Shown here piece by piece: positions 16,182 through 47,100 of a stretch of DNA of 64,000 nucleotides. Origin of the DNA: Azolla caroliniana. Its lineage: Eukaryota; Plantae; Polypodiophyta. The DNA is taken from the NCBI GenBank assembly GCA_043228905.1, contig JBHGNT010000015.1:14756001-14820000 (forward strand), in the 5' to 3' direction. Both the position numbers and the translations under genes were made by a program. Within the stretch, counting starts at the first letter, position 1; the number at the start of each line of letters is the position of its first letter. Under the pieces are notes generated by a model. The model did not search any database. It was given only the letters and a program-made list of their open reading frames with translations, and was not told where the DNA came from.

Positions 16182-16677
16182 TGTCACAGACACACCAACT
16201 ATAGACTCGGACCGAGCACGGATGATGGGGCTAATGAAGTGGAACTTAAGAAACTGGGAATGACACAAAAGCATGAAGACAAAGATAAAGATCAAGGAGA
16301 CAAGATGGGGCAAAACGAGAATACTATATTAATGTGTCAATGATTGGTGTTGAATCCCTTAAAAGGGACCAAGGAGATTACAAGTATTTATACAAGTTCT
16401 GAGATTGAATATCTCTAGAATATACTTGAGAAATATCTCTAGAATATACTCGACAAATATCTCTAGAATATACCCATCTAGATTATACCATAGAATATTT
16501 CTAGAATATACTAAAGACTAGAATATTCTGGAATGTATCCATCTATATGTTAGAATAACAATAATAGATTGTTATATACATGCTCATATCGAAATGGTTA
16601 GGCATGACGACTTGTAGATGTGAGGTTGTAGGTTCAATCCTCACTTACTATATATTTGATATCATTGTGTCGTGACA
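16182..16677 (-). mobile_element. Solo LTR of the Tcn1-like/TRIM family
   Basis: TGTCAC...GTGACA termini. Flanks GATAG/GAGAG (4/5). The reverse complement aligns with the LTRs at 19740 and 21362 (TCTAGAATAT repeats, TATAAATA..AAGGGATTCAACACC). Confidence 0.85.
16582..16645 (+). promoter_or_regulatory. tRNA-like A-box/B-box cassette at the outer end of the solo LTR
   Basis: GAAATGGTTA ... GGTTCAATCC, with 35 nt from the second G of TGG to the G of GTTC (tRNA G19-G53 spacing). No intact cloverleaf. Confidence 0.6.
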
Positions 16678-19600
16678 GAGAGAGATAGAGCTCGTGATTA
16701 TAGAAAAAAATACAAAACTATATTAACAAGGAGACAAGAATGACCAACAACTTTAGAAGGAGAAGGAGAAGGTGCTTATGTAGTCACTATCTCTCTAAGT
16801 TGTCTTTTCTCTTACTAGTACCGCCTCTTGGGAAAGAGGTCGTGTCTTAACCACCTAAGGAATATGTGTCGTAGAACATTAACTTCTATGGCACACTAGT
16901 TACTATACAAGGAGGTGGGGTGTTCACACACTTGAGTATCCTAGAGTGTATTCCCACTCACGGGAAGTTGAGTTTGATTCTCAACATGCCCCTTCAAACA
17001 CAACATCCTGTCGTTTGATGGTTAGTTTGGGTAGGCTTTGAGTGGCCGGTTCACTCTTGCTCCTTACTTCCCCTTAAGCTCAACTGGTTGATTGTCGAAA
17101 GACCCAGGTTCATCGCGAACTACCGCAACTTGTGGACTCCGAGGGCCTTGGTGAAGATGTCAGTCGTCTATAGGTTCATGCTGATGTGTTCCAGGTCGAC
17201 ATCCTCGGCCAGAACACGATCTCGGATGAAGTGATAGTGCACTTCGATGTGCTTAGTCCAAGCATGGAAGATTGGGTTCTAAGTGAGGTGAATACTGCTC
17301 ATGTTGTCACAATAGAGGAGAATCAGATCCATGCTGGGAACACCCATGTCCTTCAATATTCACTTGAGCCAAACAACTTCACATGCGGCTACGACCACAC
17401 CCCCGTATTCGGTTTCGGTGCTCTACAGTGCGACTATTGGTTGTTTCTTACTACTCCACGATATGGCGCTGCTGCCGAGAGAGAAAGCAAATCCGCATGT
17501 CGATCATCGATCTGCTCTGTAGTCGGCCAAGTCTGCATCGGTATTCCTTGTAAGTCGAATTGGTGTGTCCGATCTGTAGAGGATGTCGATTTCCATTGTT
17601 CCACGCACATACCTTACCACTCGCTTAGCACAGCCGAGATGGACATCTCACGGAGTTTGCATGAACTGGCTAAGGAGGCCGACCGGGTAACTTAGGTCGG
17701 GTCGGGTAATTGTGAGGTAGATAGATGAGGCTTCCGACTAGTTGACGATAGAGCGTCGTCTCACACTCTCTAGTGTCAAAGTCGGCATCTAGCATTAGAT
17801 TTCGATTGAGAGGGGTAGTGACGGGCTTACATTGTGTCATCCCAAACTTGTAAAGAAGATTGAGGATATAGTGCCTTTGAGAAAGCATGATGCCGTTTGG
17901 AGTCCGAATTACTTCTATTCCTAGAAAGTAATGGAGCTCCTTCATATTGGTCATTTCGAATCAGTTGGAGTGGAGCTTCTTGATGTGCTCAATATCTGTT
18001 GATTGCTCTCCCCCTATGACCAAGTCATCCACATAAATGATGATAAATACTTCTCCTCTAGAGTCACTCCGGATGAGTAAAGAGTTGTCAGACTTGGACA
18101 TGTTGAAGCCGATTTGATGAAGATATTGTGTTATCTTCGAATGCCATGCTCTCGGTGCCTGCTTGAGACTGTAGAGAGGTTTTTTGAGTCGACAGACAAC
18201 AGTCGGATGAGTAGTAGACTCGAATCCAAGTGGTTGTACCATGTACACCTCCTCGTCTAACTCACCTTGTAGGAAGGCGTTCTTTATGTCCATTTGGTGG
18301 AGGTTCCACCCTTTTGCTATTGCGAGTGCAATCACGATTCAAATTGTAGTCATCTTTGCCACCGCAGCAAAGGTCTCTTCATATTGACACCGTGCATCTG
18401 TGAGTAGCCCTTTGCCACAAGGCGTGCCTTATACCGATTGACAGTACCGTCAATGTTGTGCTTCACTTTGAAGATCCACCGGCATCCAATTGCCTTTTGG
18501 TGCTGTGACGAAGGGACGAGATCCCATGTCTCGTTCTTGGAGAGTGCTTGCATCTCCTCATTCATCACTTCGACCCATATGGGATCCTTCGCGGCTTTGG
18601 AAAAGGTTTCTGGTTCTTGGATTGTCGTCACTTTCATCATGAGGCATAATGATATGCTATGTAGTTGTTGTAGCCAAATCGGCTTACTATGTTCTTCTCT
18701 CGAGTGGAGCGACGTGGTTCTCCTGGTGTCCTCATGATGGGCACATCTATCCACCACCATGCTCACTATCGGGTGAGTGATCCGATTCGTTTCTATCTGA
18801 GTCTTTGTACTCAAGCATTTTGGCCTTTCCTTTGTTTTGTTACGGACTCGGTTCCGACGTGATTTGGTTGCTCGGAGGCTCTTGCGATCCACTCAAACTG
18901 GTTGAGATTGGACTTTCCTCTTATGTGAGCTTCGGTTGATCATCCTCCTCTACATCTATGTCAAACTCACTTTCAACTGTGTCGGATGAGGTTGATTCGA
19001 CTGTATATCAAGATGCCGACTCGTCGAATACGACATCCCTACTCCCTCGCATCTTCTTGGTGGAAGGGTTGAAGCACTTATAACCTTTTTGCTCGAGTGA
19101 GTATCCTACGGGTATACATTTCTCCAACTTTGGATCGAGCTTCTATCGCTTCTCATCGGGAATATGTACATATGCTATTGAACCGAATATCTTGACGTGG
19201 GATAGATCCGGTTTCTTCCCATACTTTTCGCAAGGGGTAACAATTCATCATATAGACGGCCGTATTCACCGCTTTAGCCCAATATGACTTTGGCAGATGT
19301 TTCTCATTCATCATTGCCCTTGTCACCTCGAGTATGTGCCAGTTCTTGCGTTCGGCTGAGGTGTGTGTCAGCAGGTAAACTCCCGCCGAATTCCTTCTTG
19401 TCGAAGGTATGTTGTAAAGGAATCGGAGAAATACTTTTTGTCGCCGTTCAATCGAAGGCATCAGACATGTCGATCGGTTGCCTTTTCAACTTCGTTTTTG
19501 AACTTTTGGAAGTATCCGAACACTTCACTCTTCTGCCGCATAGGGTAGATCTAGGTATGTCTGGAGAAGTCATCGATGAATGTTAGGTAGCACCGACAAC

Positions 19601-19747
19601 CACTGAATGTTGTCGTCTAGGCTGGTTCCCATACATCTGAATGCATTACATCCAAGATCCCTTTGCTTATGTTCCTCTCCTTTGGGAACGATTGACAATG
19701 TTGTTTGTCGAATGGACAAGCTTCACACACGCCTGCTCTTGTCACAT

Positions 19748-19815
19748 TCTAGACTCGAACCTCTGACTTTTAACACACACAATACATTGTGTTGTGTTAA
19801 CCATATGGAAACTCT
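19748..19815 (-). promoter_or_regulatory. tRNA-like A-box/B-box cassette at the 5' end of the TRIM LTR (decayed second copy at ~21370-21437)
   Basis: Minus strand ATATGGTTAA ... AGAGGTTCGAGTC, spacing 41 nt with an internal ACACAATGTATTGTGT hairpin. Confidence 0.55.
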
Positions 19816-20769
19816 TGTGAATTGTCCACATTCGATTGTGAACTTGCATATATTGTAGAGTCTAGTGTATAGTACATTCGAGAATATTCTAGTCGTTAGT
19901 ATATTCTAGAATTATTTTGTGGTATATTCTAAACGGGTATATTCTGGAGATTTTCTCGAGTATATTCTAGAGATATTCAATCTCGGAAATTGTATAAATA
20001 CTTGTAACATCCTTGGTCCCTTTGAAGGGATTCAACACCAATCATTGACACATCAATCTACTATTCTTGTTCCATTCCATCTTGTCTCGTTCTTCATCTT
20101 TGTCTTCATACTCTCCATAGCTTCCTAAGTTCATAGTCTCATCACTCACAGATTCTAGAGTTCCTAGCCTCATTACTTCTAGTTCTATGTTCGTCATCTG
20201 TGCTCCGTCCTAGTATGCGCTTGGTGTGTCCGTGACAATTTGAATCCCTTCCAACTAGGAGCACCACCCATTTTCCTCATCGCCTTTGCTTCTAGAGTTA
20301 CCATCAAACCCGTCCTTGCTTCCGAAGTTACCATCATCAACCTTGTCTTCGATGTCATCATTTTCAGCACCTCTTTGCCCAACCATCATCGCCATCAACA
20401 CTACTTGTCATCATTTTTAGGTATCATTTTGCATCATGGTTTTGGTGAGGAGTGCTTTTGATCGCTCACCTTCCCAGTTCCGGTGGGGGTCACAACCGCT
20501 CACTTTCCTGGTGGGGATTGGATCATTGCTCGTTTGCATTGCATTTTCGTTATAGTTCAAGTCTCGCGCCACTTTCTGTTGGCAAGGCGATCGCTCACCT
20601 TCTAGGTTCGGTGGGGGTCACAACCGCTCACTTTCCTGGTGAGAATCACGTGGGTTTCTCGTTAATGCTACCATTTGTGTTGTGTCTTGGGTCAACCTCG
20701 ACTATTTACCCTCTCATAATAGAAGAAGTTGAGTCGACTGCTTCACTTGCACTCCTTCGCTTGTTGTTG

Positions 20770-21230
20770 TTCCAGTTCTCGGTGAGGGCCGCATGATTGC
20801 TCACGTCCGTTTGTGTTCAGTTCTTGATGAGGGTCACATGGTCGCTCACGTCCATTCGTGTTCCAATTCTCAATGAGAGCTACATGGTCACTCACGCCCG
20901 TTCGTGTTCAATTCTCGATGAGGGCTGCATGGTCGCTCACGCCCGTTCGTGTTCAATTCTTGGTGAGGGCCGCATGGTCGCTCACGCTCGTTCGTGTTTT
21001 CAATGAGGACCGCACATGGTCACTCACGTTCCAGTCCCCGATGAGGGCCACACATGGTAGCTCACGTCCATTCGTGTTCTAGTTCTTGTTGAGGGCCGCA
21101 TGGTCTCTCACGCCCGTTGGTGTTCGTGTTCCAACTCTTGGCGAGGACCAACATGGTCTCTCATGCCCGATGGTGTTCGTGCTCCCCGTGAGGACCACAC
21201 ATGGTCGCTCATGCCCATTGGTGTTCAATA
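20770..21230. repeat. ~41-bp degenerate tandem repeat inside the TRIM
   Basis: Unit GTTCGTGTTCAATTCTCGATGAGGGCCGCATGGTCGCTCACGCCC, roughly 10 copies. Confidence 0.85.
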
Positions 21231-22103
21231 CCTCATCTTCTAGAAGGGTTACTCCTTGTCTAGGATTTACAAAATACTTTGGACGTGGTCTAAGATTTTC
21301 ATCAACATTATCCCCTTAAGCCAAGGACCGGTTTGGGAAGGCAGTGTAAGAAGGGGGATAATATCACATTCTATACGTGAACCTCTGACTTTTAACACAC
21401 ACAATACATTGTGTTCTGTTAACCATATGGAAACTCTTGTGAACTGTCCACGTTCGATTGTGAACTTGTATATATTGTAGAGTCTAGTGTATAATACATT
21501 CGAGAATATTCTAGTTGTTAGTATATTCTAGAATTATTCTGTGCTATATTCTAAATGAGTATATTCTAGAGATATTCAATCTCGGAAATTATATAAATAC
21601 TTGCAACATCCTTGGTCCCTTTCAGGGGATTCAACACCAGTCATTGACACATCAATCTAGTATTCTCGTTTCATACATATTGTCTCCTTCTTCATCTCTG
21701 TCTTCATGCTCTCATGTCGCTCACAACTTCTAGAGTTCCTAACCTCGTCACTTCTAGCTCCAATTTCGTGGCCCGTCACTCGTAGCCCCATCATCCGTGC
21801 TTCATCCCAATCCGCACTTGGTGTGCCCGTGACAACTCTCTCCTTTTCGGTAAAAGTCGGAAGTCCGAAGACGACTCCTTTCGATTGCATTCCTTTGAGC
21901 TTTTAGAGGTTAATGTGGCCAATTCACTTGTGCCACAGTTCTATGTCGGCGTCGACTCTCTGGCCCTTGGCATACATTGCCGAGTTCATCTCGGTGGGAG
22001 TCGAGGATGAACATCTTACCTTCTCTCTGACCCCGAGCGATGAGTCGACTTTCTTTTTCGATGAAGCGTCCTCCATCGTTGAAGCGGACTTGCATGCCTT
22101 GTT

Positions 22104-22683
22104 CGACTATCTGGCCAACTGAGACCAAGTTCTTTGTTATTGTAGTCCAACATGCAGAACGTTCTTGATGTAGGTTTGATTGCCTTCTTCCCCAAATGGG
22201 ACATTGTCGATATGCTGAATGGGGCGAATTGTGTCATCCCGAGTTTCCACATAGCTGGGTCGTTCGGGCTTCCGTAGCTCCATGAACCAATCCTTGTGGC
22301 CTCGTGGGATGTCATGTGGTTGGATGCACCCGAGTCGACGAACATACATCTTCTGGTTTGGAGGTGTTGGTCGGGTTGGAGGTTGTCATCGAGCGACTAT
22401 CTGGCCAACTGAGACCAAGTTCTTTGTTATTGTAGTCCAACATGCAGAACGTTCTTGATGTAGGTTTGATTGCCTTCTTCCCCAAATGGGACATTGCCGA
22501 TATGCTGAATGGGGCGAATTGTGTCATCCCGAGTTTCCACATAGTTGGGTCGTTCGGGCTTCCGTAGCTCCATGAACCAATCCTTGTGGCCTCGTGGGAT
22601 GTCATGTGGTTGGATGCACCCGAGTCGACGAACATACATCTTCTGGTTTGGAGGTGTTGGTCGGGTTGGAGGTTGTCATCGAG
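22104..22683. repeat. 290-bp near-identical tandem duplication of the Copia protease region
   Basis: CGACTATCTGGCCAACTGAGACC at 22104 and 22394. The ORF track shows duplicated peptides. Confidence 0.9.
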
Positions 22684-24007
22684 TTCACTCTGTGCCTCAT
22701 CACAAACATTCCGCCACGATTGTCGTAGTCGGAGTTGGAGGCATAGTTTGTATGTTGTCGGTTTGTGGAGGCCAACTCACTCTTCTTTTTGCAACACTCT
22801 ACCTCATAGTGACCGAATTTACCACAATATACGCACTGAGCGGGATTGTTTTGTCGGAGGTTGGGTTAGGTCTGATTGCTCCCCCTTCTTCTGGATGCCC
22901 CGCCTTGGAAGTTCGACACGTGTTGTCGATAATAGAAGTTATGTTCTCGAGGTTGCTCTTGGTTATGTCGGCCTTGGCTGAATCGGCCTCTTCTTCCCCG
23001 ACCTTGTCCTCTTCCTCCATCAGAGTTCGAATAGAGCAGTTGTCCTTCTTGCGCATTGCTTCTTGTTCAAACATGATTCTCCTCGACTAGTTGCATGGAC
23101 TAGAGATTGAAGAGGGAGGGATGATTCTCCCTCGCGAGGACTGCCAAATGAATGCTCCGAACTGAGGTGCTAAGCCTCCGAGGAAAATCTGCACCATTTC
23201 ATTGTCGTCAATGCTAACATTGATCGACCCAAGGGCATCACACAACTCCGTGATCTTCAAGGTGTAGTTGTCGATTGACATGTCCCTCTGTTGTATATCA
23301 TTCAACTCTTGACGGAGTTGAAGCTTTCTTGGGGTCGTGTTGCCACGAAAATATTCTTGAGGTTCCCCCATGCCTCCTTTGGCATTTTGGCCTCTCGGAT
23401 GTAACCGAGCATGTGATCATGGATGCATGATGCAAGGTAGTACAACACACGACTCGCCACTAGCTCCCAAGCTGGGTAGTCAGCATGTGTTGGGTTGGGT
23501 TGATTCTCGTTTGCCGACAAGGTATTGGTGCATCTTGTACTCCCAAGATGCAAAGTTGTTTCTGTTGAGCTTTTTGGTAGGAAGAGCGCTTCCCATCTGT
23601 GTGTTCATGTCGAACTTCTTCTTCTTGTCCTCTTGATACGAACTGTGCAAGTTGTTGTTACATCGATCAACCGGTTCTTTCCAAAAAACTGTATTAACAA
23701 GGAGACAAGAATGACCAACAACCTTACAAGGAGAAGGAGAAGGTGCTTATATAGTCACCTTCTCTCTAAGTTCTCTTACTAGTACCGCCTCTTGGGAAAG
23801 AGGTCGTGTCTTAACTACCTAAGGAATATGTGTCATAGAACATTAACTTCTCTGACATGCTAGTTACTATACAAGGAGGTGGGGTGTTCACACACTTGAG
23901 TATCCTAGAGTGTGTTCCCACTCACGGGAAGTTGAGTTTGATTCTCAACAAATAGAAAGTAAATTAAGGAAGTAATTGTAGCTCAACAAAGAGGTTCAAG
24001 TTGTAAC

Positions 24008-27500: not shown

Positions 27501-28270
27501 TCTATAATCACTTTTTCGAATAAAAGCATGTCAGCATGGCATGCCATTAATATGAGGGGATAACCTTGCATTTGATCGGGTAATGAGGATACAATGCTTA
27601 GCTCATGATATAGTGTCATATTGCGCCCATGGACAAAAACGAAACACAAGCACATCATTTGCATGCAAGTGGAATAATATACCATGAATAGAGACAATCG
27701 TTGAATTTGATGGTTGCTCTTATGTATGCAAATAGAGACCACTCATTGGATTGGTCTGTTGTTGTGGCCCCTTTATCTAGGAGTTGAATTGTGTTTTACG
27801 TGTGTGTGGATGAGCGAGAACAACAAATTACGAAACATATTCATGTTCGATGCTGAGGCAGGATTGCATTAAACATATGAGGAGATTAAGTGGTGACCTA
27901 CGAAGGTAGTTTTAGAAGTTGGAAACCAATGGAGTAATGGTCATAATAGGAGAGCTAAAATTCGGTCCATAGTCCATCATCAACATGGCTTGGTCTATGA
28001 TGCATGCGTAGAGTATTTGTAGAAGGGTGGTCCATGCAATGCAATTGGTCAAGTCAAGCCAGTTGAATGTTATGTAACCTCTGAGGTAGCAATATGAATC
28101 GCTTACACGGAGCCAAACAAATAAAAACATGCGAAATTTTTTCCACATTTTTAAAAACAACCGAAATCTTTGTAATAAAAGAAAAAACAAAGTGCAAAAA
28201 CTTAATATTCATCTCCCCCACCCCCGAAAAACACAGAAGAAAAAAATAGTCATTGCCGTGGGAAGGATTA

Positions 28271-28370
28271 NNNNNNNNNNNNNNNNNNNNNNNNNNNNNN
28301 NNNNNNNNNNNNNNNNNNNNNNNNNNNNNNNNNNNNNNNNNNNNNNNNNNNNNNNNNNNNNNNNNNNNNN
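28271..28370. other. Assembly gap (100 N)
   Basis: Run of N. Confidence 1.
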
Positions 28371-28379
28371 ATTTTAGTG

Positions 28380-28975: not shown

Positions 28976-29034
28976 GGTACAAGTGTAGAAGCACATTTGT
29001 ACTCTCTCGTCACGACGCCGTAGGAGGTGTAGGT

Positions 29035-29948: not shown

Positions 29949-29985
<37 letters not shown>

Positions 29986-30806
29986 CCCTCCCTCCCCCTG
30001 TTTCTGTCTCTATGTGTGTGTGTGTGTGTTTTCAGAAACAAATTCCCTTGTCTAAATGAATTAAATTTTTTTTTTTCCTAGCTCCTTCTCTTTTGTGTTT
30101 TTTTTTTTTTTTGAGCAAAGAATATTTGATTTTTTTTTATTTGCTCACAAATTCAACGGGATTACTCTGTTTTGTGTTGCTGCAAAATATGCCCACCCTT
30201 TTCTCTTGCTCGTTTGCTCTACCAAGGGGCCATATATTAAGAATATATGGTCTCTGCCAGAATTCAGAACTCGGAGGGCAATTTGTGCACATCATTCAAC
30301 TTGTCCCGAATTCCACCCGACCAAATCTTTGCGTAGGAAACCTGCTCCAACTTAGCCATTCCAAGTGAATCTTCGCGTAGGAGTTTGAACTGGTGTTTCA
30401 CTTCTCAGCATAATGTTTCGGACCCGAATTCGAGTCCTGAGCAAAAAATTCATGTAATGTTTGGCCAGGGTTGGAGCTTGCTGATGTGCCATATTCCCAA
30501 AGTAGTAATTATTTGCTTTATGTTCTTTTGTGCTTGTATGGCTTTTGTGAATGTGTGTGTGCATATGTATACATAGCAATTGAAGACTTGAACCCTCTCG
30601 AGAGATGCTTCATTGATCATTCTCTCTCGTGTTTTATGTCACAAATGTACAAGAAACAATTTCGTCGTTTTATTGGCAGGGAATTCAATTTAATTTTCTG
30701 GTTGTGAAGCTTTCCATTTATAGAAAAGAAATGATGGGTTTATATGCATTGGTGCCTGGTGGAATCGAATTTTCCGTGATTGGATGATCCTTGAAAGTGG
30801 TTAGAA

Positions 30807-33800
30807 ATGCCAGTAAACATGACAACTGAAAGCCCGATGAGGATGATGGGTGCAAGTGGTGGAGGCATGCCCATGAGTGAAAATAGTATAAGGGCAATCC
30901 CTATGGGTGAAAATAGCATGGCTCCGATTCCTCCTTCGGCGGCGGATGGTGTGGCTCAGGAGCTTGGGATGCTCTTGAAAAGCCACTCTCGGCTCGATAG
31001 TTTACTAAATCGGAAGGACATGGTTCCGCATCGAAGTGGAAGTGCCCCTCCAAGTGTGGAAGGCTCAATCGCATCAATGGGAGGCCTTCTGCTTCCTGGT
31101 ATGGAAAGCTCAGGAATTCACATCATTGAGAGCTCCGCACATGGGCAAATGAATGAGAATGTGGTTGATTCGGAACAAGAGCTTCGATCTGATCCGGCTT
31201 ACTTGGCCTACTACTATTCTCACATCAACTTGAACCCACGGCTTCCGCCACCGATAATTTCCCGGGATAATTACGTCCTTGCACAGCGTCTGGCAAGTGG
31301 TAATCTTCCGGATAAGAAAAATCTTAGGTCTTTTGACGATAGTAATAAAAGGTCTTTGTTTTCGACACAACTTGTGCTTCCGACCCACAATGAAGTTGAA
31401 TCATCTGAGGATGAAAAGTCTCCAGAGGATGGCTTGTTGAGGCAAGTATCGGGTAACCGGGTGGAAAGCAAAGCTGAGGCTGGGTTATCGGCCACTCATA
31501 TGCATGGATTTGGTGCCCGTCCGAAAAGCTTAGTAGACCTCATTCAGGTAAGAAAGATTTATCGTAATTAACTAGTTATATTGAGGAGGTTGAAAGAAAT
31601 ATGATAAATATCTCCCATATGGATTTTCTTTTGCACAGCAAGATTTCCCGAGGACGCCTTCTCCAGTGTATAGTTTACCTCGACCATCTAGTAGGGTTGC
31701 AAATGAGGAGGGGAAGACAGGGGGAGATTCTCATCTGCGAGAGTCTTCCGTGACGGTTGCTGCAATCACTGAGCTAGATGCACCTTCGTTACATGTCCCT
31801 TCACGCTCGGCCACACCGACTCTTAAACCCCCTATGAGTGCTATACCAATGGGAAATGCTGCTATAGCATCTGTAAGTGGGAATTTGGGACCCATTGCCA
31901 GGATTCCAACACCAGATCCTTTGAGTGGGAATGAAGCATTAATAGAAGAGATCTCAAGTTTGAGGGGGGGATCAAGCACATCTGATTTGACAGCTTCTTT
32001 ACAAGATCTAACCTTGTCGTCTGTAGCTGGTAGGCATGGGGGTGTTCCTACAGACCATAAGCGTCTTGCGGGTCTATCATTAGATCATCATCAACAAGAG
32101 TTGCAAGAGCAACCGTTGTTGCAACAACAAGTTTATCGCCATAACCAGCATGGGCAAAGGTCTCAAGCTGGGTCACAAATTGGGCAAGCGAAGAACCTTC
32201 ATGCCCATCAGCAACAAGGTTTAGGGCAAAATTTCATGACTTCAAGTAAGCATGGGGTTGCATTATCACAATCTTTAAATGCTCCTATCCAATCTTCGAA
32301 TAACATGTTTGCTGCAGCCATGTCATATATGGCCAGCGGGAATCCTTATTATCCAACGACAAACATGTATGCGTCCCAATATAGTTTAGGTGGATACCCT
32401 CTGAATAATCCTCTCCTTCCGGGAGGAGTAATGCCAAATTACACTAACAATGCAAGCTACGAGAATGTCGCGACTGGAATGGGTGGCCGGTCTGCCTCGT
32501 CCGGCCTCTCTAATATGGACATGCAACAGCTGTATAAGTATTCGAGCCAAAACCAAATTGGGCTTCACTCTCGGATACCTGATCCCTTGTATCTTCATTA
32601 CTTACAGCAACGGACCACCGATGATATTCATGCAAATGACCCTTTGCTTAGAGGAGCATATGGGCAGTTGAATCCTCTGGAGGTACAGAAAAGCCAGTTA
32701 AGTTCAATGCTTGGCTACTCAGCACAGGATCATCACAAGTCCCAGTTTGCCAGGGGTAGCGCACTCAGTCTTCAAATGGGAGGCCAAGCTGGCTCAGTTA
32801 GTCCTGGTTACTATGGGAGCCCACCTGGGCTAGGCTTTGTCATGCCATATGCCAATTCGCCCCTCACAAGTCCAGTGCTTCCAGGGTCCCCTGTTCTTCC
32901 TGGGGTCTTATCTCTGCGACATAGTGGAAGGTCCTCTGCTGGATGGCAAGGAGTGAGAGCCAGTGAGACGGGTGAAGATATGAGAGCTTCCTCATTGTTG
33001 GATGAGCTGAAGAATAGCAAATCTCGGAGGTTTGAACTCCAAGAAATCGTTGGTCATGTGGTGGAATTCAGGTAATTCTTCTACCCTGTAATTTAGCTAT
33101 CTAAATTGAAATCCTGCATCTTGTCTTATCTATGATAAAATGGTACAGTGCGGATCAACATGGTAGCCGGTTCATTCAGCAAAAGTTGGAGATGGCATCT
33201 GATGAGGAGAAAGGCATGGTCTTCCAAGAAGTTTTACCTCATGCACTTACTCTCATGACTGATGTGTTTGGGAATTATGTCATTCAAAAGGTAATGTCCT
33301 GCATATATCTCGACTATAAAGCTGGAAAAGATTTAGTAACTTTGTTTAGGTCTACAAGTTCAGACTGAAGTAATGCGCATGGATTGATTGTCATATAAAA
33401 CACCATGATTGTGTATTTTAAAAACTAATTCAAGGAGGACGACAAAACTAATATTAAACGAATGATTTTATATGGTTATGGTGACCACATGAAATTAATG
33501 GATTGGGAGCATCATGACTATAGTTATCTATCTATTGGAATATTGGTAACTGTTCTGTGGTTTTGTTTATCTTTCAGTTCTTTGAGCATGGAAGTATGGA
33601 GCAAAGGGCAGAGCTTGCGAACAAGCTGGTTGGCCATGTCTTAAATTTGAGCCTTCAAATGTATGGCTGCCGTGTGATTCAAAAGGTGCATCTTAGCATA
33701 GCGTTTTTTTCAAAACAACTCACTTTAAGACTAGGTCATAGATTCAAATCCTTAATTTTACATGCCTTTGTTACACACCATATATCACTTCCCTTTAACT

Positions 33801-35362: not shown

Positions 35363-37466
35363 TCCATTTCGAACAAAACTGTAATACCTTATATGACCAC
35401 CTTTTATAACTGATTTGTGCATAATACAAATTTGAAAAGTAGGACGGAAAAGAAATGCAGATTGTATGGAGAAGTGAGGTTTGAACTACAATCAGCAATC
35501 CCGACTATCTAACATCAACTAAAAGACTAGGAAAAGTGTGTAGAGAGAAAGTAACGAGTGCTCGTGTTGTAATGTTGTATCAGAGTGTATTATCTTTTGT
35601 TTTTAAGAAAGGGTAGTAGGCTTGAGCGCAAAATGAAAGAATGTATTCTCTTTTGTTGTAACTGAATCCAGGAATCTCTTTTCTATTTCGAGTTCAATTT
35701 ATTTCTACCCCACTCTTATAACCTCCCAGATGTGCTTTGGTTATTATTATTATCATGCAATTCCCCTTTGTTCTGTACAAAATCAAATTGATTGATGACT
35801 TGTATATAGATTGCTCATGTAACATATCAAATATCCTTGCGATTTGCCATGGCTCTAGGAAAAATTAGTGCTATTGTGTTATGTTTTATTGCTGTGATAA
35901 TTTGCAGTTATTGATTAATCTAACATTCTGGTATCTCCTGCGGTAGACCAACCAGAAGTCCATCTCATGGAAGTTTTTTAATGATATGTAAAGGTTAGTT
36001 AGGACAAGATGAGTCATGTGCTTGGAGGGGCAAACATCTTGGAAGAGGCTACCTCTTTGATTCCCCTGGTAATGTACTAATTAGTAGGGCAGAAAATCTC
36101 ATGCAAGTGTTTAATAATATTCAAAGGTTAGGGCAAATGGGTCATATGCTTGGAGGAGCAAATATCTTGAAAGAGGCTTAACCCTTCTCTGCCTCATTGA
36201 TTCTCTAGGTGATGTACTAATTAGTAGGTCAGAAAGTCCTGTACACCAGTTTATAATTATATGTACAGATTGAGCAGTTATAATGGTCCACTCATGGCAT
36301 AGTATTTATGTAATTATCTTGCCTATTCATCATCTTTTGATCTCTTTTGTGGGTGAGGGGTAGGTTATCTATTAGGTATATATAGGTGGAAATAGAGAAA
36401 CATCTTGTGGGATTGAGTTCAATTACCCCACTTAGTGTTTTGAATGTCATATTGAGAGCTAATGAAACCGTTACGTCATTTGCATTTACGATGCTTAAAT
36501 GCTTGTGGGATAGACATTTTCAGTCGCTATTATCATGATATTTGTGCCAAATTTGATCCATTGCCTATAATGTGCTGATAAAGCATTTGAATTTGATAGA
36601 TGTAATCATATCTCAAGAATGAGTGTATGTTATTTGAGCGCTAGTAAATAAGTATGGTGCACTTGTGTAATTGAATTACTTGAAGACATTTTACATAAAT
36701 TCTAGATTCCGTTGTCCATATTAATCATTCTCAAAGTGTTTTGTTATTTTTCCTATAAAAGATGAACTCAACAAGCTTGGCAAATCACGATTAAAAATAC
36801 AAGTCATTTTGAGTTATCTATGTTGAAAAAGCCCTAGATTACCTAAATACTAATGACAATGATGTTAATGCATGAGGTGCTTTTACAACTTGTAAAAATG
36901 TTTGAGAAAGTTTTGGAAGTATGCATCGTTAGCTATTGTGTATGGAATATGTTGTGGTAAGGGCACATGATTTTTGACATTGGTTTGCATGGAGTGAGGC
37001 AATGTTACATAATATACTAACCCCATCTTGATGTCATCATAGTTGTGTATAGTTTGGATTGTTGCTTTACCTTTTCTTGGTTCATGGTGATTCCTTTGCA
37101 AATTTCTAGTGATCTATGATTGTATGCTCACCCATCGTGTTAAGATGACAATTGAGTCCCCATGCCTTTGAAGATCGACAAAGCCTTGGTCAAAAGTGAT
37201 TTTCCGCAACCATAGGTTGTGATTATTTGAAACTAAGGCAATGCTTGATTGACGTGGGAAACACACTAGAGAGTTGTAATAAAATACTAGTAGTAGCGAT
37301 AGAAACAAAGGACTGTGCATTGTAAGCATATACATACTCAACACACATTGTGGGCCTCCTATTGTCTTCTTCATCTTCAATCTCTTCAATCAGGTGAGTT
37401 CTAGTTTTCTCTTTCATGGATTAAAAAAAAAATCTTGGCTCAATACCACATAAAAAATATTGGATA

Positions 37467-37555
37467 TGTTGAGAATCAAACTTAACCTAGGGTGTGAACA
37501 CACCTTAAGAATAGTCAAGTGTGTTAACACACACCACACGGACGTTCAACAATCA
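37467..37555 (+). mobile_element. Copia LTR 5' fragment related to the 16714-23950 element
   Basis: TGTTGAGAATCAAACT...CAAGTGTGT matches the start of that LTR. It is interrupted by the Tcn1-like LTR at 37556. Confidence 0.6.
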
Positions 37556-37557
37556 TG

Positions 37558-37620
37558 TCATGATTCAAACTCTTGACCTATTGTATTGTAATCAAATGTT
37601 TTAACCAACACATCCAATAC
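37558..37620 (-). promoter_or_regulatory. tRNA-like A-box/B-box cassette at the LTR 5' end
   Basis: Minus strand TGGATGTGTTGGTTAA ... GAGTTTGAATC (C>T in the B box), 35-nt spacing. Confidence 0.55.
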
Positions 37621-37954
37621 ATGTTCATGTTACTTTTTAGTAGATTATTGTAGATTATCTATTCTACATGTAGGAGATTTTGAAAGCTTCTAGAAAGCTC
37701 CAGAAGCTAGAAGCTTCTAGAAAGCTCCAGAAGTTGGAACATTCCAAAAGGTTGTGCATGAAAATGAGTCTTTGCATGGAACTACATTTAGAGCCCACAA
37801 ACATGTATAAATATAGGGGTTCACCTTGGCCCTAGTCAAGGTGAACAACACCAGTTACGGAAGCATAATATCAGTTCTTATTCTCTTGTCTATTTTCTCT
37901 CTCTCTTTCTTGTTCCCTTGCTTACGCTTAGTGCTCGTTCCGGTAAACTCTCGA

Positions 37955-39433
37955 TGACCCAGGCAACCTAAGATAGGCTAACGAGAGGGTATGCATCCCT
38001 CTCACTCTTAGAGAGACAATGCCATCAGGCATACTTTCAAGAGCCACAGACTAAGGGATGGCTCTTCGACTCATTAGTGACCCCTTCCCTCATGTATGCA
38101 TCAGTAGTATGGGCTCCAGGTCTACCATCTTTCATGTGGACGCAATTAGAGAGACCTTTGGTGATGATGTTATCACGTCAACTCCGAAGCAAATCGACAA
38201 TACCACATGACATTATTAGAGCAGAGTTCAGTTTGGCCCCGATGTTAGTTTTTGCACTTTTCCAAGTGGTAGTTTTTATTCATAAGATACATAGCCAGCC
38301 ACAAGATAGGATATCCCATCGAGCTTTTGAGGCATCCGATCCCTATATGCGTCCGGAGACACTAGCTCTTGGTATAGCACTGTAGTGAGTTGGTTACTTG
38401 CAAATGGTATAGACATTAATAACCTACCTCCCCTTAAGTACAATCGTGGGACTGATCAAACTTTAATCTCTTATGAAGTTTGTAAGAAAGTAATACACCA
38501 AGAAATATGGCAAATTTACATCTTGAGAGCCACTCCCATCTAAAATGTTGTACTATAAGGAACACTTCTTGCACTTCTCTAAGTTAGGTTTTATTACATG
38601 ACCAAAATATCTGGATACATTCTTATCGAATGCACTAAGGGTGGCCATTGGACAACTTAGGGTATCATCTCACCAACTTGAGATTGAGAATGGTCGTGCT
38701 AATAGAGTTCCTAGAGAGGAAAGGCTATGTAGGCTATGTCACATAGAGATAGAGGATGAGTATCACTTTACATGCAAGTGTCCGACTTATACCGAGATAA
38801 GGGCAAAATACCAAGACATACTAGGACCCTCTCCCACTCTCTCTAGACTATTAGATACCCCGGATATAAAGAGATTAGGTAGGTATATCTTAGAGCTAAA
38901 ACAACATAGGGAGAATAAATTACAAAGTGTTAACCATAACCCTTTTAGTATTCACCAACATGTAACTAATGTAATTTTTCAGGAACAAGGGGAGACGATG
39001 AATGTGGACACACCTACACCACTCGGCCTCTCTCTTGATGAAGCAAAAATGCAAAGAACAACCAAACACCCTCGGATATTAGGCTTCAAAGTTCCTCGAT
39101 GTGGAGTAGAAACGATTAAGAAGATAAGGGAACGTGAGCTACACTGCCTAGAAGTTATGGTTGGGGTACCTTTTACATTAGGACCACAGACCACATCCAC
39201 ATCGAAACCCTTTGACCTCCTGCTTCTTTTTGAGAGACTTGGTTGGAAATGAAACTCGGCCTAGTATAAAGCCATTTCTTTATGGAACATGTTTTTTTAC
39301 TAGAACTGTTTAGCTTAAACTCTATTTTATTTTATTTTTACTTTCGATGAATGGGTAAACACCCCATTTTGGTTGTAAAACAATTGTCTCATGGGCCAAT
39401 TTTGGTCTTAGAAGACGTTAATATATCTTTCTT

Positions 39434-39478
<45 letters not shown>
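37955..39478 (+). mobile_element. 5'-truncated non-L1 LINE (RTEX/L2/CR1-group-like) with C-terminal CCHC finger and (CT)n tail
   Basis: MYASVVW...IIRAEF RT thumb. LRVSSHQLEIENGR...RLCRLCHIEIEDEYHFTCKCPTY. Ends GACGTTAATATATCT(CT)n. Left boundary approximate. Confidence 0.75.
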
Positions 39479-39482
<4 letters not shown>

Positions 39483-41109
39483 ATTTAACCTCTTCTACTC
39501 GTTTGTGACAGTTTGTTCACCTTCCATCTTCTTACTACCATGTTCGACTCTATCAACAACCAAAACAAATAATGGCAGCCTTGGAACAACTTCAACTAGA
39601 AAATGAAATCCTTCATAAATCTTTACGAGAGCTTCAAAATGGCAGCACCTCCAACAACCCCCCACCCGCTGAGCGTCACCCTTTGTCAGCACCTAGCCCA
39701 ACCCCTTCCTCGTCCCATCCATATGTCCTAGAACCTAGTGTCAGCCTACTCGACAAATTCATCGGCTTGACGGCGCATCTTTGCGGCTTCATTAATCAAA
39801 TTCAGCTTATCATCTGTTTACAGCCCCAACGTTATGCTAGCGATTTCACTCGGGTCAGCCTCGTTGGCACCCTTCTCTTCGGATTGACACAAGCGTGGTT
39901 TGCGCCATTGATCGAAACCTCATCCCCACTGTTAGACAACTTTCTTGCCTTCCTTGCGGAGCTTGAAGCAACGTTCGGAGAGACAAACCGATGTCGAACG
40001 ACACTCACGAAGCTCTATTCCTTGCAACAAGCTCTTGTCTAGCATCAGTCTGTACTTCAGAGTTTCGTTAGATCGCATCTGATGTCAGTTGGGATGACCA
40101 ACTTGAAGCCTTATGCGATCACTTTCGTCGAGGTCTTTGAAATGATGTCAAGACTCTTCTCTTAAACTTTCCGGAGCCCACATCGTTGTTTCAAGTAATC
40201 TCCCAAGCTGTTCAATGTGCTAATCGTCTTTTTGAGCTTTGACAGGAGGAATGTGGGACTCGAGGATTTCAGTCTTCCTCTCACAACGCTCCCATCACAA
40301 GGCCATATGTATTAGTTTCGCCAACCAAGCCATGGTTGGCATCCATCAATAATACTCATACCCAGATGGAGGTCGACCCCCATACTCCAATGGATATTGA
40401 CCATGCTCGGTTCCAACCATTAACTGATGACCAATGACAACATCAACGTGACAATGGCCTCTACCTCTATTGTGGTACCCCCCCGGCCATGTCATTCGCC
40501 ACTGCCCGGTGCGAGGCCCTCGATATCAATCCCACCGTGCACGACTTGCGAAGGTTTCTCGACAACAGGAAAACAACCAAGCCTGGCTGTAGTAGGAGTC
40601 GTGCCGCTGGACATTTCTTGTTACCCTACTTCTCCATGCTCCTACAATTCAGTTACACCAACAAGAGGTTTTACAAATTGGAAGTAAGTCTTTGTTTTGG
40701 GTCTACTTCAATACAATCCCATGCCTTGCTCAATTCTGGTGCATCTACCTGTTTCATCGATATCTCATTCGTTCAAGCACATAATATCCCCACCGTCCGC
40801 ATAATACAACCCATATCCGTTGAAGCTATCGACGAACGGGTTCTCTCTTCGGGGGCGGTTACCGAAGCCATTGTCCCATTGGTGCTTCAAGTTGGGCCTC
40901 ACCAGGAGGTATTAACGTTTTACCTCATTGCAACCCCTCGACATCTGATTGTTTTAGGGCTATCCTGGTTGGAAACACACAATCCGAATGTGGATTGGTG
41001 CAACCATTCCATCACTTTTTCACAAACACCAACGCAGGTCACGAATCCTTGCCCCATTACTTGTGTGGGGGCTGCTTTTAGCTTGGTTGCACATTCTTCC
41101 GATTTCAAC

Positions 41110-41760
41110 TCAGTCTTCGACACTAGAAAAATGGTTTGGTAGATGGGATGCAAGATACTTGCTTCATGATGCATCACTAGATTCCTTTGTAAATGAGGCC
41201 TTTTTGCAACATCAATGTATCATGACATGGGACAAATGTGGAGGATCACGGTTCACACATTATACTACACATGTTGCACCTAACTACAAAACCATATTCT
41301 TTGCGGACCGGGGAAACCATACACATTGATACATGTTAGAGCATTATTTGCCATTCAAACCATTGCTTCCATGCGACTTAGCTCACATGCATTGCGATGT
41401 GAGACGGGGCATTGGGGCACAAGTGATGAGAGTAGTTGGCTATGCACACTTTGCCCTAAACAAGTTTGTGAGTTTGAGTATCATAGTTTGATATAATGCT
41501 CTACCTTTGATCATATTCGACCATGCTTTCCATATCTCTTCGAACGAGCCCAATCCTTGCATGAATTCCTCTCACAACCACAATGTGGACTCTCGATTGC
41601 AACATTCATTGGTAAAGTTCTTGAACATTGAGAGTCACTACTCACTTTCACACGTATCACGTGAAATGTAATATTCTGGTCTCATAGGTCATATTTGACT
41701 TCCGGAGACGATAATATAATCTCTCTCTCTCTCTCTCTCACTCACTCACTCACTCTCTCT
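41110..41760 (+). mobile_element. Second 5'-truncated LINE of the same clade
   Basis: Translation MRLSSHALRCETGHW..LCTLCPKQVCEFEYHSLI*C (41371-41500). Ends GACGATAATATAATCT(CT)n. Confidence 0.7.
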
Positions 41761-42290
41761 TGTCAATCCATTCCATTATGTTCTAGCTTCACTTACATGG
41801 TATTAGAGTTGAGTTGCATGATCTAAATCTTATTTCCATACTCTTCTATAACCAACAAAACTCACCACAACTTATTTCAGATAAACAAATCTCACTACTA
41901 TCACTATGGCAAGCTCAAGCAGAAAATATACCTTGGACAAATTGACAGAGAAAAACTACAAAACATGGAAGACTCGGATGGAGCTCCTACTTAATTTGAG
42001 GAGCTCCTCAAAGTCATAACTGGCGCCAGTTGAGAACTTGAAAATCAATTGTCAAAGAAAATGGAAGGAGTGGCGAAAGCTGGACAAAAGAGCTAGACTT
42101 AGGGTTTAGGGTTGAATGTAGATGAAAAATAGTTAGATGTTATTCGAAAACTCATAACTACAATTGCAATGTGGGCAAAACTGAAGGAACTATATGAACC
42201 TCAAGATGGTACACTAAATTTCACACCTTAGCCACACAATTTAATATGTGTGTTTTATAGCAAGAAGAAGATGTCCCTACCTTCTTATCA
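41760..42290 (+). mobile_element. Copia 5' fragment: LTR end, tRNA-iMet PBS, gag start
   Basis: TTACA-TGGTATTAGAG at 41793-41808. MASSSRKYTLDKLTEKNYKTWKTRMELLL from 41906. Confidence 0.7.
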
Positions 42291-42294
42291 ACCT

Positions 42295-43729: not shown

Positions 43730-44193
43730 CTGAGAGATGGAACCGGACAATGGTTGAAGCAGCCAGGGCAATGCTGGAGGAGAAGAGCATGCCCAGGATC
43801 TATTGGGCCGAAGAAATCCGGACGACTGTCTATATTCAGAATCGGATTTCTAATTCTGGAGCAAGGATGTCGCTGCATGAGTTGTATTTCGGGTGCAAGC
43901 TGAACTTGGGACATCTTAGGGTGTTTAGTAGCATTGCTTATGTGCATGTGACGAACAAGAAGCGGAGGAAGCTAGATGCCAAGGTCGAGAAGTGTATCTT
44001 AGTTGGCTACTCACACGAGCAGAAGGGGTACAAATGCTACAACCCTTGGACAACGCAAGTGCGGGTGAGCCTCGATGTTGTCTTTGATGAATCAACATCC
44101 TGGTACTCCCTTCCATCTACGACCCCCGAAGACTTCGAGCCGATTGCTGGAGATGAGCCCAATGAGAAAGAAGACATTGGATCTCAAGAGGAG
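43730..44193 (+). pseudogene. Copia integrase fragment
   Basis: VEAARAML..YWAEEIRTTVYIQNR..RRKLDAKVEKCILVGYS..KGYKCYNP..VSLDVVFDE. Confidence 0.85.
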
Positions 44194-47100
44194 TGTCAAG
44201 AATAGTACTGAGACAAAGAAGAAATTAGTATTAAGAGAGAAATATTAGTACTAAGAGGAATAGAGGATGTAGAACACTCGAGAGAAGGAGAGAGAGAGAG
44301 AGAGATCGAGCGATATATTATGTGAGAAGAATATACAAGGAAGGCTAGGAGGCTTAAGACTGGCGTTGAACCGATTTGGTTCGAAATAATGCCTTCTGCG
44401 TCCTTTTATAGTGTTCTCAGGAGTAGTCCTGAAGCTTCTAGAATGTTCCAGAGAAATCTGGAATATACATTAATTTTCTATAGTAAAATTTAAATAAAAA
44501 TATTATCTTACGTATTACAATAGATAGTGTAATGGTCAAGAGCTCGACCCATGTAACATAAGGTCATGGGTTCGAGTCTTGCCATATCATGACACTATCC
44601 CCCCCTTAAAACGACGAGTGTCACGAGGCATTTTGGATTGAGGACCCGATTTATCTGGATATTGACGATGGAAGTCTTCAAGAAGAGCACGAGCATTGGT
44701 CACATTCTCTATTGGTTCCCAAGTATGCTCGTTGGGACTATATCCTTGCCAATCAACTAAATAGTAAAGCTTGTTGCGAACAATCTTGGAATTGAGGATG
44801 GCGGCAACCTCGTACTCGGGTCCATCTTCAAGTTAGATCGGGGGTGGAGGTTGTGGAATACGTCTAGGGATGGTGTTGTCTTGATAGGGTTCGAGGATAG
44901 AACTATGAAACACCGGATGTATGCGAAGTTGGGGGGGTAGATCGAGACGAAAGGTGACATCATTAATCTTTCCAATAATACGGAAAGGACCTAATCGTCG
45001 ATAATCCAACTTCTCTCATGGGCGAGTAGTCTTGATGTGTCATCGTAGTAGCTATACCCGATCTGTAATGTTAAAACTGGATGGAAGCCGATGAAGATCC
45101 GCGTAAACCTTGTGTGTTTGTTGAGCTTGCTATAGATGAGTAGATAAATTTGCTTGTATCTTGTGTAACCGTTCCAAATGATCCTCTGTGCAAGGATTTG
45201 TGGGTAACTCTAGGGTTTTCAAATATACACCATTGGGGGTGACAACCCGTATAAGCATAAAATGACATAACTTTACTCGATGAGTGGACAGAGTTATTAT
45301 AGGTAAATTTGGCAAAGTGGAGAATATCTGCCCAGTCATCCTGATGATAGCTTAGAAAGCACGGAAGATACTGCTCCAACATTTGATTTGTTCGTTCTGC
45401 TTAGTCGTTGGTTTGCGGGTTACCTACAAGTGACCTTGAGCATTTTAAAAAGGTGCTTCCAGAATTTCGAGACAAACTAGGGTCCACGGTCGCTGATGAT
45501 ATTATCAGGAAGGCCATGATGCCAACATACTTCACGCATGACAATTTCGACGATTTCTTCATTGGAGATTTCCTTAGTACATGGCAGGAAATGAGTCATC
45601 TTCGTATATCGATCCACTACTGTTAAAATCGCATTGAATCCCTTAGAGACTAGAAGATCTGTGATGAAATCTAGAGCAATGGATTGCCATGGCTTGCTTG
45701 GAATTGGTAATGGTTCTAATAAACCATATGGATGATGCCTTGGCATTTTTGCTCTGCAACATGTATCACAAGTCCGAACAAAATCTTCGACAAATTGTCA
45801 CATAGAGGGCCACCAGAATGATCCTTGTACTAAATCTAATGTCTTAGTACTACCAAAATGCCCAGTTGTATATGTGTCATGACAGTTTTGGACTACTCGA
45901 AGGCGGCAAGAACCATTAGGAACATCCAAGAGTTTCTTAAAGAATAGTAATCCATCATGACATTCGAATTGTCGATAGTTTGTACCTGGTTGTGGCGATT
46001 GTGAACAAGATGCTCGAGAGGGATCAATTTGTGCTAGAATGGCTTGCGCGAAAGCATATGTCTTCAAGTCCTCACATATGGTATCGATAACGTGAGAATC
46101 CAAGGGCATGCCGAAGACCTATGTTGCTTGCAGTCGTGCCAGTCCCAAGATTACTTGCTTTTGGTTATCGAAAGCTGGCTCGCCGGGACACGGTGCTAAA
46201 TACGAATGTCGTGATAATGCATCTGCCTTCCCTTGGTGCTTCCCCGGACGATATGTAATTTTGTAGTCGAAACATGTGAGGAATTGGGCCCACTGAGCTT
46301 GACGTTGATTCAACACATGAGCACTCTGAAAGTAGGCAAGGTTTTTGTGATCACTGAATACGGTGACTTGATGAGAGGATCCCTCTAGAAAATGCCTCCA
46401 TTGCATAAAAGAGTCCACTATTGCTAATAGCTCCTTATCACGAATTTCATAGTTGATTTCGGCGGCGTCAAACTTGCGTGAGTGGAAAGCCACAGGATGT
46501 AGGTTTTCATCACTACCTTGTTGTGATAGAATGCTACCCAATGCAAAATCCGACGCGTTCGCTTCCATGATGAATGGTTTTTCCGGATCAACATGAGCTA
46601 GAATAGGAGCCGATGTAAATGCCTTCTTAAGATTCTCAAAAGCCATGTCCACTTCTTTAGACCAAACGAATGATTGTCCCTTCTTAGTAAGTTGTGTGAG
46701 AGGCAGAACAAGCTTTGAGTAATCCTGTATAAACTCGCGGTAGAAATTGGCAAAGCCTAAAAAGCATTGCACATCTCTCAACGAACGAGTTTGCCACTCT
46801 ACCACCATTTTGACCTTAGCTGGATCCAAGGAGATGCCTTCCGAGGAGATGACATAGCCCAGAAATTCCACATGGTTGCACCCGAAACTACATTTTTCCA
46901 GCTTTGCATAAATACCATGTTCTCAAAGTTGTTTTAGTACTAACAATACATGAGAATCATGCTCTTCTGGGGTATTCGAATAAACCAGTAGATCATCCAA
47001 ATAGATGATCAAACAAGAATCCAAGAGATCTCGGAATATATCATTTGCCATGTGCTAGAAGACTGTTGGTGCATTAGTGAGGCCAAACGGCATGACCATG

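Follow-up and report, generated by a model that had tools for sequence, protein, structure and literature searches.

Antisense tRNA-type promoter boxes at the U3 edge of self-priming chromovirus LTRs in ferns

Why would the long terminal repeat (LTR) of a protein-coding retrotransposon carry, at its outer edge, a tRNA-like promoter that points out of the element? The question is raised by a 64,000-nucleotide stretch of Azolla caroliniana DNA (contig JBHGNT010000015.1, positions 14,756,001 to 14,820,000; hereafter the window), in which LTRs related to those of chromoviruses contain words resembling the A and B boxes found in promoters for RNA polymerase III (Pol III). Reading the sequence alone, an earlier observer had proposed that these boxes lie antisense to each element and face the LTR terminus, and a motif scan confirmed both their presence and their direction: all are antisense to their own element and face the U3 end. 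B-box-like words stand at 16631 (+, GGTTCAATCC), 19761 (-, GGTTCGAGTC), 37571 (-, AGTTTGAATC) and 44569 (+, GGTTCGAGTC), each with TGGYYA upstream. The 35-nt spacing between G19 and G53 (numbered by the tRNA convention) was also found as described in three of them, at 16597-16632, 37605-37570 and 44535-44570, and GT at tRNA positions 46-47 is kept in all four U3 heads. Two details needed correction. The proposed B-box pattern, G(G/A)TTCRA.TC, has no match as written at 16631 or 37571, and the four "divergent LTR versions" are indeed four U3 heads but only three families, because two of the LTRs belong together. Four A+B pairs occur in the window against a mean of 0.15 in 40 shuffles (maximum 2), for a pattern that was picked after looking.

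The best-preserved cassette, running from T8 to C61 at 44525..44578 (+), has G19 at 44535, G53 at 44570 and no mismatch to the A+B rule described below. It lies in a chromovirus 3' LTR (44194..44594 (-), U3 starting at 44594), which follows a broken pol (44590..47700 (-)) encoding reverse transcriptase (RT), RNase H (46122-46922), integrase and a chromodomain (44590-44832); the 5' end of this element is lost. The solo LTR at 16182..16677 (-), whose U3 starts at 16677, carries a cassette from T8 to C61 at 16587..16640 (+) with one mismatch to the rule (G19 16597, G53 16632; profile E 9.8e-5); it keeps AGGTT at positions 44-48, part of the T stem and the C32-T33...A37 loop pattern. In the third family, the 5' LTR at 37556..39510 (+) has a cassette at 37562..37615 (-) (G19 37605, G53 37570; E 0.0089) in which C56 is replaced by T and the B box adjoins the LTR end. 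The cassette reported there is thus present; its LTR extends as far as 39510, interrupted by about 1.4 kb of inserted DNA. The remaining carrier is a non-coding 2.1-kb element (19740..21834 (+)), which we call a TRIM (terminal-repeat retrotransposon in miniature) although their usual size is 1 kb. Its LTRs, 19740-20237 and 21362-21834 (+), are of the same family as the solo LTR with a different U3 head. The TRIM cassette holds up in part: in the 5' LTR it is degenerate (19752..19803 (-)), with an intact GTC-N4-GGTTCGAGTC and G53 at 19760, but the A-like TGGTTAA is displaced to 41 nt upstream of the B box with an inverted-repeat spacer between, the profile match covers the B half only (E 0.0015 in a 2.3-kb search), and the 3' LTR (21362) has a broken B box, GGTTCACGTA.

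The cassettes were also recovered by a profile built from 24 cassettes outside the window, whose training set lacked the families of its two weaker window matches. In 64 kb it gave exactly three matches at E<=10, all at LTR ends: 44514-44581 (E 1e-14; 1.2e-14 for the cassette at 44525..44578), 16585-16641 (E 1e-4) and 37558-37607 (E 0.009).

The orientation of each carrier was fixed independently of its boxes. After the 5' LTR lie bases complementary to the element's own LTR at a site 31-32 nt past a TATA box. In the TRIM these are 12 nt (predicted self-primer 20024..20035 (+), 31 nt after TATA; primer-binding site, PBS, 20240-20251) and in the 37556 element 11 nt (PBS 39513-39523 (+), complementary to 37838-37848, 32 nt after TATA); a related locus, L027, has the same arrangement. 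This self-priming layout fixes the orientation, places the start of the genomic RNA behind the TATA box and makes a tRNA primer unneeded. The TRIM/solo family and the 37556 LTR are therefore oriented by TATA, self-primer and PBS, and the 44194 LTR by its polypurine tract (PPT; 44595..44607 (-), the same tract as in relatives) and chromodomain. TATA, self-primer and PPT together rule out a wrong orientation, and also that a PBS or the remnant of a primer was mistaken for the cassette.

Relatives were collected from metagenome contigs by chromodomain alignment alone, blind to the cassette. The best 80 of 234 confirmed matches gave 76 loci, 65 of them usable (3' LTR start found, at least 100 nt) and 11 left out as too short or without a PPT. 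The 65 fell into 39 clusters at 80% identity over the first 100 nt: 26 from ERZ assemblies, with 54-81% identity to the query and a GC content of about 0.42, likely ferns, and 13 from JGI assemblies, which are more distant (44-56% identity, GC about 0.5). A fixed rule (B box with at most one mismatch and A box with at most two, 30-45 nt apart, within LTR nt 1-130) was passed in antisense by 22/26 ERZ clusters, compared with 1/26 in sense, 1/22 in antisense nt 131-260, 0/26 in chromodomain DNA, a mean of 0.53 (maximum 3) in shuffles and 1/13 JGI clusters. Although the rule allowed 30-45 nt, the G19-G53 spacing was 33-36 in 19 of the 22 passing clusters; across the 24 aligned (selected) cassettes it was 34-36 nt, within the 30-45 nt of a Pol III type 2 promoter. 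Unsupervised counting pointed to the same words, the top 6-mers of nt 13-130 in the ERZ clusters being AATGGT (14/26), ATGGTT (14/26) and GTTCGA (13/26). GTTCRA occurs in 21/26 ERZ clusters, and the longer GT-N5-GTTCRA in 19/26 in antisense, none in sense and 0/13 JGI clusters. The cassette is real and lineage-wide. It is also numerous: the 44194 LTR was found in public runs of at least five organisms, and its 481 bases were matched by 2,800-5,300 contigs in each run, as expected of a very abundant family. Among viral contigs, 24 pattern matches yielded none that was confirmed.

In a midpoint-rooted tree of 40 integrase sequences the 13 JGI clusters form one clade, and the cassette-less ERZ clusters nest among carriers, whose median amino-acid identity is 66%. 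This suggests that these clusters lost the cassette, although the tree itself cannot tell gain from loss, and the carrier labels of L024, L029 and L047 were set by rule or by eye, without a profile match.

Are the boxes then kept by selection? In 15 family representatives, selected because they have boxes, the A core has a median pairwise identity of 0.80, as do positions 44-48, and the B core one of 0.86; the upstream stretch has 0.33, the spacer 0.36 and the two T-stem arms 0.50 and 0.40. Four-fold degenerate integrase sites have an identity of 0.40 (120 pairs, 16 representatives). T47, G53, T54, T55, C56 and A58 are invariant in 15/15 families, whereas only 4/94 four-fold integrase columns reach a 90% majority. 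Within the 44594 family, no variant at or above 2% was listed in four runs at 44532-36, 44561-64 or 44566-94, the CpG of the B box included; the spacer and the CpG at 44511-12 vary, as do G10 and A14. Depth weighting and nearness to the LTR end may add to the apparent constancy in these lists. The comparison of boxes and spacing with their flanks thus came out as the sequence-only reading had anticipated, and its claim that tRNA-derived A and B boxes are retained under selection is supported, boxes and spacing being fixed across families near synonymous saturation. The cassette is probably a selected TFIIIC/Pol III site, judging from these patterns of conservation.

That the cassette is a neutral relic, or simply follows from constraint acting on the LTR end, is accordingly very improbable. 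In favour of this account, ARAGORN and Rfam are blind to the cassette, and several copies, as well as the non-coding element, have cassettes in decay. Such an account appears largely refuted by the five B-box positions and T47, invariant in 15/15 families where so few four-fold integrase columns are, and by a distance to the LTR end that is free: G53 lies 25 to 72 nt from that end among loci, which places the cassette outside the integrase end signal.

What is conserved has a tRNA register. T8, A14, G18-G19, G45-G46-T47-C48, G53-T54-T55-C56-R57-A58 and C61 align with tRNA positions, nearly gapless. This register supports a tRNA origin more strongly than does the reciprocal result, in which the cassette profile, run over 294 kb of loci, matched a real tRNA-Asn gene (E 0.059) and missed a tRNA-Thr gene in L030; that match gives weak support. 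The similarity to tRNA foreseen for covariance models did not materialize: ARAGORN called 0 genes in the window, and Rfam matched no tRNA there or in two cut-outs of 130-160 nt, the cloverleaf being decayed; this is one of the outcomes listed in the sequence-only reading as speaking against it. ARAGORN run on 60 of the 76 loci made no call in cassettes and found two real tRNA genes, both in L030; when Rfam was applied to the cassettes of 20 loci, it matched no tRNA. A preserved cloverleaf was rejected directly, since 55.4% of cells are paired in the 24 cassettes versus 52.8% when shuffled (43/500 shuffles as high). The covariation score was reached by 19/500 shuffles and is within what relatedness gives; the anticodon stem is 40% paired, and RNAalifold predicts no pair. 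Boxes and spacing are kept and the cloverleaf is lost: what is under selection is thus a set of short words and the distance between them, and not a tRNA fold.

The two tRNA genes of L030 are convergent nuclear genes (Asn and Thr, at 552-627 and 831-906). Just upstream of tRNA-Thr there is a fragment of a chromovirus integrase, together with a short inverted-repeat unit; we did not count this as an insertion upstream of that gene, since about 130 nt with inverted ends lie between and the integrase fragment is internal, without an LTR end. In the fern Adiantum, 2,586 tRNA calls have been reported, and the available part of that report has nothing on LTRs (PMC9387920).

What might the short words do? 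The conserved words are those that TFIIIC reads. The reading we prefer, with a probability of about 0.45, is that the cassette is a TFIIIC site under selection because it bounds the Pol II promoter of the element itself, by analogy with tRNA-gene barriers. A tRNA gene or the head of a short interspersed element would have inserted once, long ago, antisense into U3. TFIIIC would bind the boxes and bring TFIIIB to the AT-rich stretch that separates them from the Pol II promoter; in the 5' LTR the complex would then sit between host heterochromatin and the promoter, holding the promoter open, so that the bound complex would shield it from silencing. We hold more tentatively the wider picture of very high-copy autonomous fern chromoviruses in which each LTR would bring along, on its outer margin, a TFIIIC/Pol III boundary of its own, back to back with a Pol II promoter that is often of heat-shock type.

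The surroundings of the cassette supply the elements of such an arrangement. The stretch 16-40 nt upstream of T8 is 79-90% AT. Between cassette and TATA, the 44194 LTR has an nGAAn array at 44431..44448 that resembles the heat-shock-element consensus, and similar arrays at 16521, 19877, 21499 and 37710 extend this to all five window LTRs. Six of the eight nGAAn triplet matches in the window fall in these LTRs, and the first nGAAn pair lies 54-77 nt from T8 in the four window heads. TFIIIB would thus have space between cassette and promoter. Arrays occur in 13/22 cassette-bearing loci and 0/11 JGI relatives; a subclade of L021, L027, L038 and L046 has the cassette without the array. Their sequence suggests that the fern elements are heat-induced; the heat-shock elements of ONSEN, as far as the available text describes them, resemble these arrays (PMC13602373).

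The same layout could instead serve as an active Pol III promoter. The 3' LTR would then yield an RNA antisense to the PPT and the integrase end, as a self-limiting small RNA or by interference, and 5' and solo LTRs would read into host DNA. Both boxes, the tRNA-like spacing and the AT-rich upstream stretch are kept, as this would demand, and in some families the complement of the PPT gives a T4 run 41-61 nt after G53. We nevertheless rate this account as unlikely. No terminator is conserved: in 8/24 aligned cassettes there is no T4 within 400 nt, and in 7/24 a T4 lies within 27 nt of G53. As a general terminator the PPT complement fails, since it holds in some families only. The RNA fold is not conserved either, and the RNA-type runs X16-X20 hold only 0.04-0.22 of the words, from which no conclusion on expression is drawn. 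That neither terminator nor fold is conserved argues for a bound complex over a defined RNA product, as in the boundary reading.

A third account places the function in the genomic RNA, where the same stretch complements the D and T loops of a host tRNA and would bind it just behind the PPT, like the 3' half of the Ty3 primer site; the bound tRNA might aid dimer formation, strand transfer or plus-strand priming. This would predict the antisense orientation and a site at the 3' end of the genomic RNA, and in the accessible text on Ty3 the RNA 3' end binds tRNAi-Met by a 12-nt and an 11-nt block (PMC11381356). Conservation reaches past the minimal boxes, to an 8-nt block at 14-21 and to positions 45-47, and C56 is kept where G57 is often A (9/22), which G-U pairing would also permit. 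But these elements self-prime and have no need of a tRNA primer, the T-stem positions that would supply pairing length vary (identity 0.40-0.50), the G-to-A changes that pairing would tolerate are missing from G53 and infrequent at G18, G19 and G46, and the anticodon positions vary, so that no single tRNA is indicated. On balance we think it unlikely, though with antisense transcription it is a main rival of the boundary.

Several observations weigh against the boundary. The fission-yeast tDNA barrier, as described in the available part of its report, needs TFIIIC and Pol III and functions in either orientation (PMC2040200), so a boundary alone leaves the fixed antisense orientation unexplained, and that orientation is better predicted by tRNA pairing. 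The 5' half of the A box is worn, with G10 present in 7/15 families and G10>A reaching 43% of depth in one run, and conservation extends to positions 45-47 and 20-21, which are not part of the minimal boxes. In the DNA upstream of the A box the 24 aligned cassettes have no fixed-place TATA, expected near -35 in plants, and no conserved CAA, which plant tRNA genes have (PMC3082873). Arrays in only 13 of 22 carriers mean that the cassette is not tied to them. Four of 26 ERZ clusters do not pass the rule, and among those that do, some are mis-anchored (spacings 30, 42 and 45). The 24 outside cassettes behind alignment and profile were selected on the presence of boxes, the ERZ loci seem mostly to stem from a single assembly series with some contigs likely collapsed family averages, and the contig data are depth-weighted, which favours the commonest words.

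A further possibility is that LTRs with boxes act as landing pads, this or another lineage integrating beside Pol III complexes as Ty3 does. The majority line of run X1, 32 contigs past the LTR end, has the family's A-box word 5 nt out, and the 37556 LTR lies about 75 nt upstream of a B-box-like word at a Copia LTR end. Yet 0/7 flanks (four window insertions and the outer flanks of L001, L021 and L041) lie upstream of an A+B pair; agreement of the X1 signal is 0.37, and none of the other five runs showed it at that offset. Joints between an LTR end and the upstream stretch did not pass the listing rule, with two single-contig cases. This idea appears quite improbable.

A Copia LTR opens with a perfect 6-bp hairpin, and the 7-nt loop of this hairpin is similar to the T loop of a tRNA (GTTGAG TTTGATT CTCAAC, opposite strand), at window 16968-16986, 23932-23950 and 37464-37484 and near 1700 in the L041 flank; these T-loop-like sites have no A box at tRNA spacing. 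Copia LTR ends of this kind have received two chromovirus LTRs, that at 37556 and one in L041.

How does the arrangement compare with known systems? The closest is Helenus (TRIMp3; Kojima 2024), through which tRNA-derived sequence in LTRs is already in print (PMC10886601). In the accessible portions of that paper and its supplement, the tRNA-derived LTR sequence is likewise conserved around boxes A and B and is not a working tRNA, the box A and B motifs are set out, and Helenus LTRs also keep GGTC five bases before GTTCRA (PMC10886601). One plant family of Helenus is described there, in Selaginella (PMC10886601). The differences are as marked. Helenus elements are non-autonomous, 311-1263 bp and tRNA-primed, whereas those here are pol-coding, self-priming and TATA-bearing, and the tRNA part of the Helenus LTRs in the supplement is sense, in the 3' half and proposed to transcribe the element, in contrast to an antisense cassette at the U3 edge (PMC10886601). 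Its PBS complements a host tRNA, while here the PBS complements the element's own LTR (two window elements and L027), and the sole non-coding carrier, at 2.1 kb, exceeds the Helenus size of under about 1.3 kb. The available text expects autonomous elements to use Pol II and remarks only that "not a few LTRs" in Repbase resemble part of a tRNA (PMC10886601).

Cassandra and Ajax share with these LTRs a captured internal Pol III promoter, and Cassandra occurs in ferns, but by the same partial source their promoters are 5S-derived and sense, start the element's own RNA and sit in non-autonomous elements (PMC10886601). The proposed analogy with Cassandra finds no support in mechanism: the cassette is antisense, lies at the U3 edge and is also found in protein-coding elements with a TATA box and a self-primer. 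Given self-priming and a TATA promoter, it is not a transcription promoter of the Cassandra or Helenus type.

The elements themselves resemble the Tcn1 clade of the Tf1/sushi group, for which the accessible accounts give a chromodomain integrase, a self-priming PBS about 31 nt after TATA, a PPT and TG...CA ends, with no mention of a Pol III cassette (PMC6317226, PMC2864245, bioRxiv 2022.12.06.519325). Self-priming is reported there for most Tcn1 elements and the Tf1/sushi group (PMC6317226). Here we found a Ty3/Gypsy pol with a C-terminal chromodomain, as in that group, and a Tf1/sushi-type self-priming PBS in the TRIM, the 37556 element and L027. Named matches of RT and RNase H include fungi and vertebrates, at 47-59%. 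"Tcn1-like" is thus an assignment by sequence features and not by phylogeny against named references. According to the portion available, a PCR survey of 2010 recovered no Tcn1 from ferns but did recover other chromovirus clades, Mordred and Galahad (PMC2864245).

In Ty3, too, the RNA of a Ty3/Gypsy element has blocks complementary to a tRNA at its 3' end, and an LTR element is tied to the Pol III machinery, but Ty3 is tRNA-primed, pairs with one tRNA over blocks of 11-12 nt and targets host tRNA genes; A and B boxes in tRNA spacing within the element are not reported in the accessible text (PMC11381356, PMC6673722). In tDNA and TFIIIC barriers, the latter including ETC (extra TFIIIC) sites, A and B boxes likewise work through bound factors and not through a tRNA product, at least in the parts available (PMC2040200; PMC3395662). 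Those described are host loci in yeasts, not on a mobile element, and not shown for ferns (PMC2040200, PMC3395662). We found no paper on an antisense tRNA promoter in the U3 of autonomous chromoviruses, with Repbase, subscription journals and bioRxiv supplements, which may note one, beyond the search; a term search of the accessible text of a plant LTR motif survey returned no tRNA, polymerase III, Tcn1 or B-box (PMC11656987). The suggestion of novelty stands for the chromovirus layout, for which no report was found, and falls for tRNA-derived LTR sequence, already known as Helenus in the part of that work available (PMC10886601). What is new is the antisense, U3-edge layout in autonomous self-priming chromoviruses; tRNA boxes in LTRs as such are known.

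Pol III promoters in LTRs have been known only as engines of small non-autonomous elements. An outward-pointing promoter that autonomous elements hold while synonymous sites saturate must serve another purpose. If that purpose is a boundary, it would explain how chromodomain elements that favour silent chromatin stay active, the element staying expressible inside heterochromatin; solo LTRs would seed fern genomes with many boundaries and Pol III promoters that face outward, and giant fern genomes would thereby hold a large, hidden stock of TFIIIC sites that tRNA finders do not see. If the cassette is instead a tRNA-binding site, tRNA would have a role in an element without a tRNA primer.

The families that carry the cassettes have further features. 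The solo LTR is flanked by GATAG/GAGAG (4/5 match) and the TRIM, which is nested in a Copia element, by GCTCT/ACTCT. Solo and TRIM LTRs are 79-89% identical over most of the LTR, but the first ~140 nt are unalignable, so that one LTR family has two unalignable U3 heads (16540-16677 and 19740-19870) with a B box in both. The 5' segment of U3 may have been exchanged as a module, or else have diverged; modular exchange of this segment is reportedly found in Tf1/Tf2 and Tosmo elements. BLAST of the solo/TRIM LTR against the loci found no relatives, so the family is represented by its three window copies, and PBS, PPT and LTR ends alone link the TRIM to the chromovirus lineage. The insertion that splits the 37556 LTR (37970-39415) has coding-like frames without a Pfam match and presumably resembles the 3' end of a long interspersed element; gag and protease remnants follow that LTR at 39509-41139 (+).

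Among the outside loci, L009 has good antisense A and B boxes at 2952-3014 (-), in the coding region between protease and RT (E 0.36), which may be chance and are without a counterpart at the same place in the window copy. Three contigs have two PPT-LTR junctions about 5.3 kb apart (L012 3823/9130, L009 825/6113, L018 510/5840); these are tandem elements with a common LTR, or assembly of circular paths.

The window as a whole has a GC content of 40.7% and many Copia and Gypsy remnants. It contains an assembly gap of 100 N at ~28270-28370 and tandem duplications at 22104-22683 (2 x 290 nt, 99%) and 10427-10871 (4 x 110 nt). Two host genes were recognized: exons encoding an NABP (Pumilio-associated) domain at 30795-33072 (+), and an intronless phenylalanine ammonia-lyase frame at 57288-59600 (+), which marks the host as a fern: its product is 84% identical to that of Adiantum and 82% to that of Ceratopteris, with named seed-plant proteins at 73% or less.

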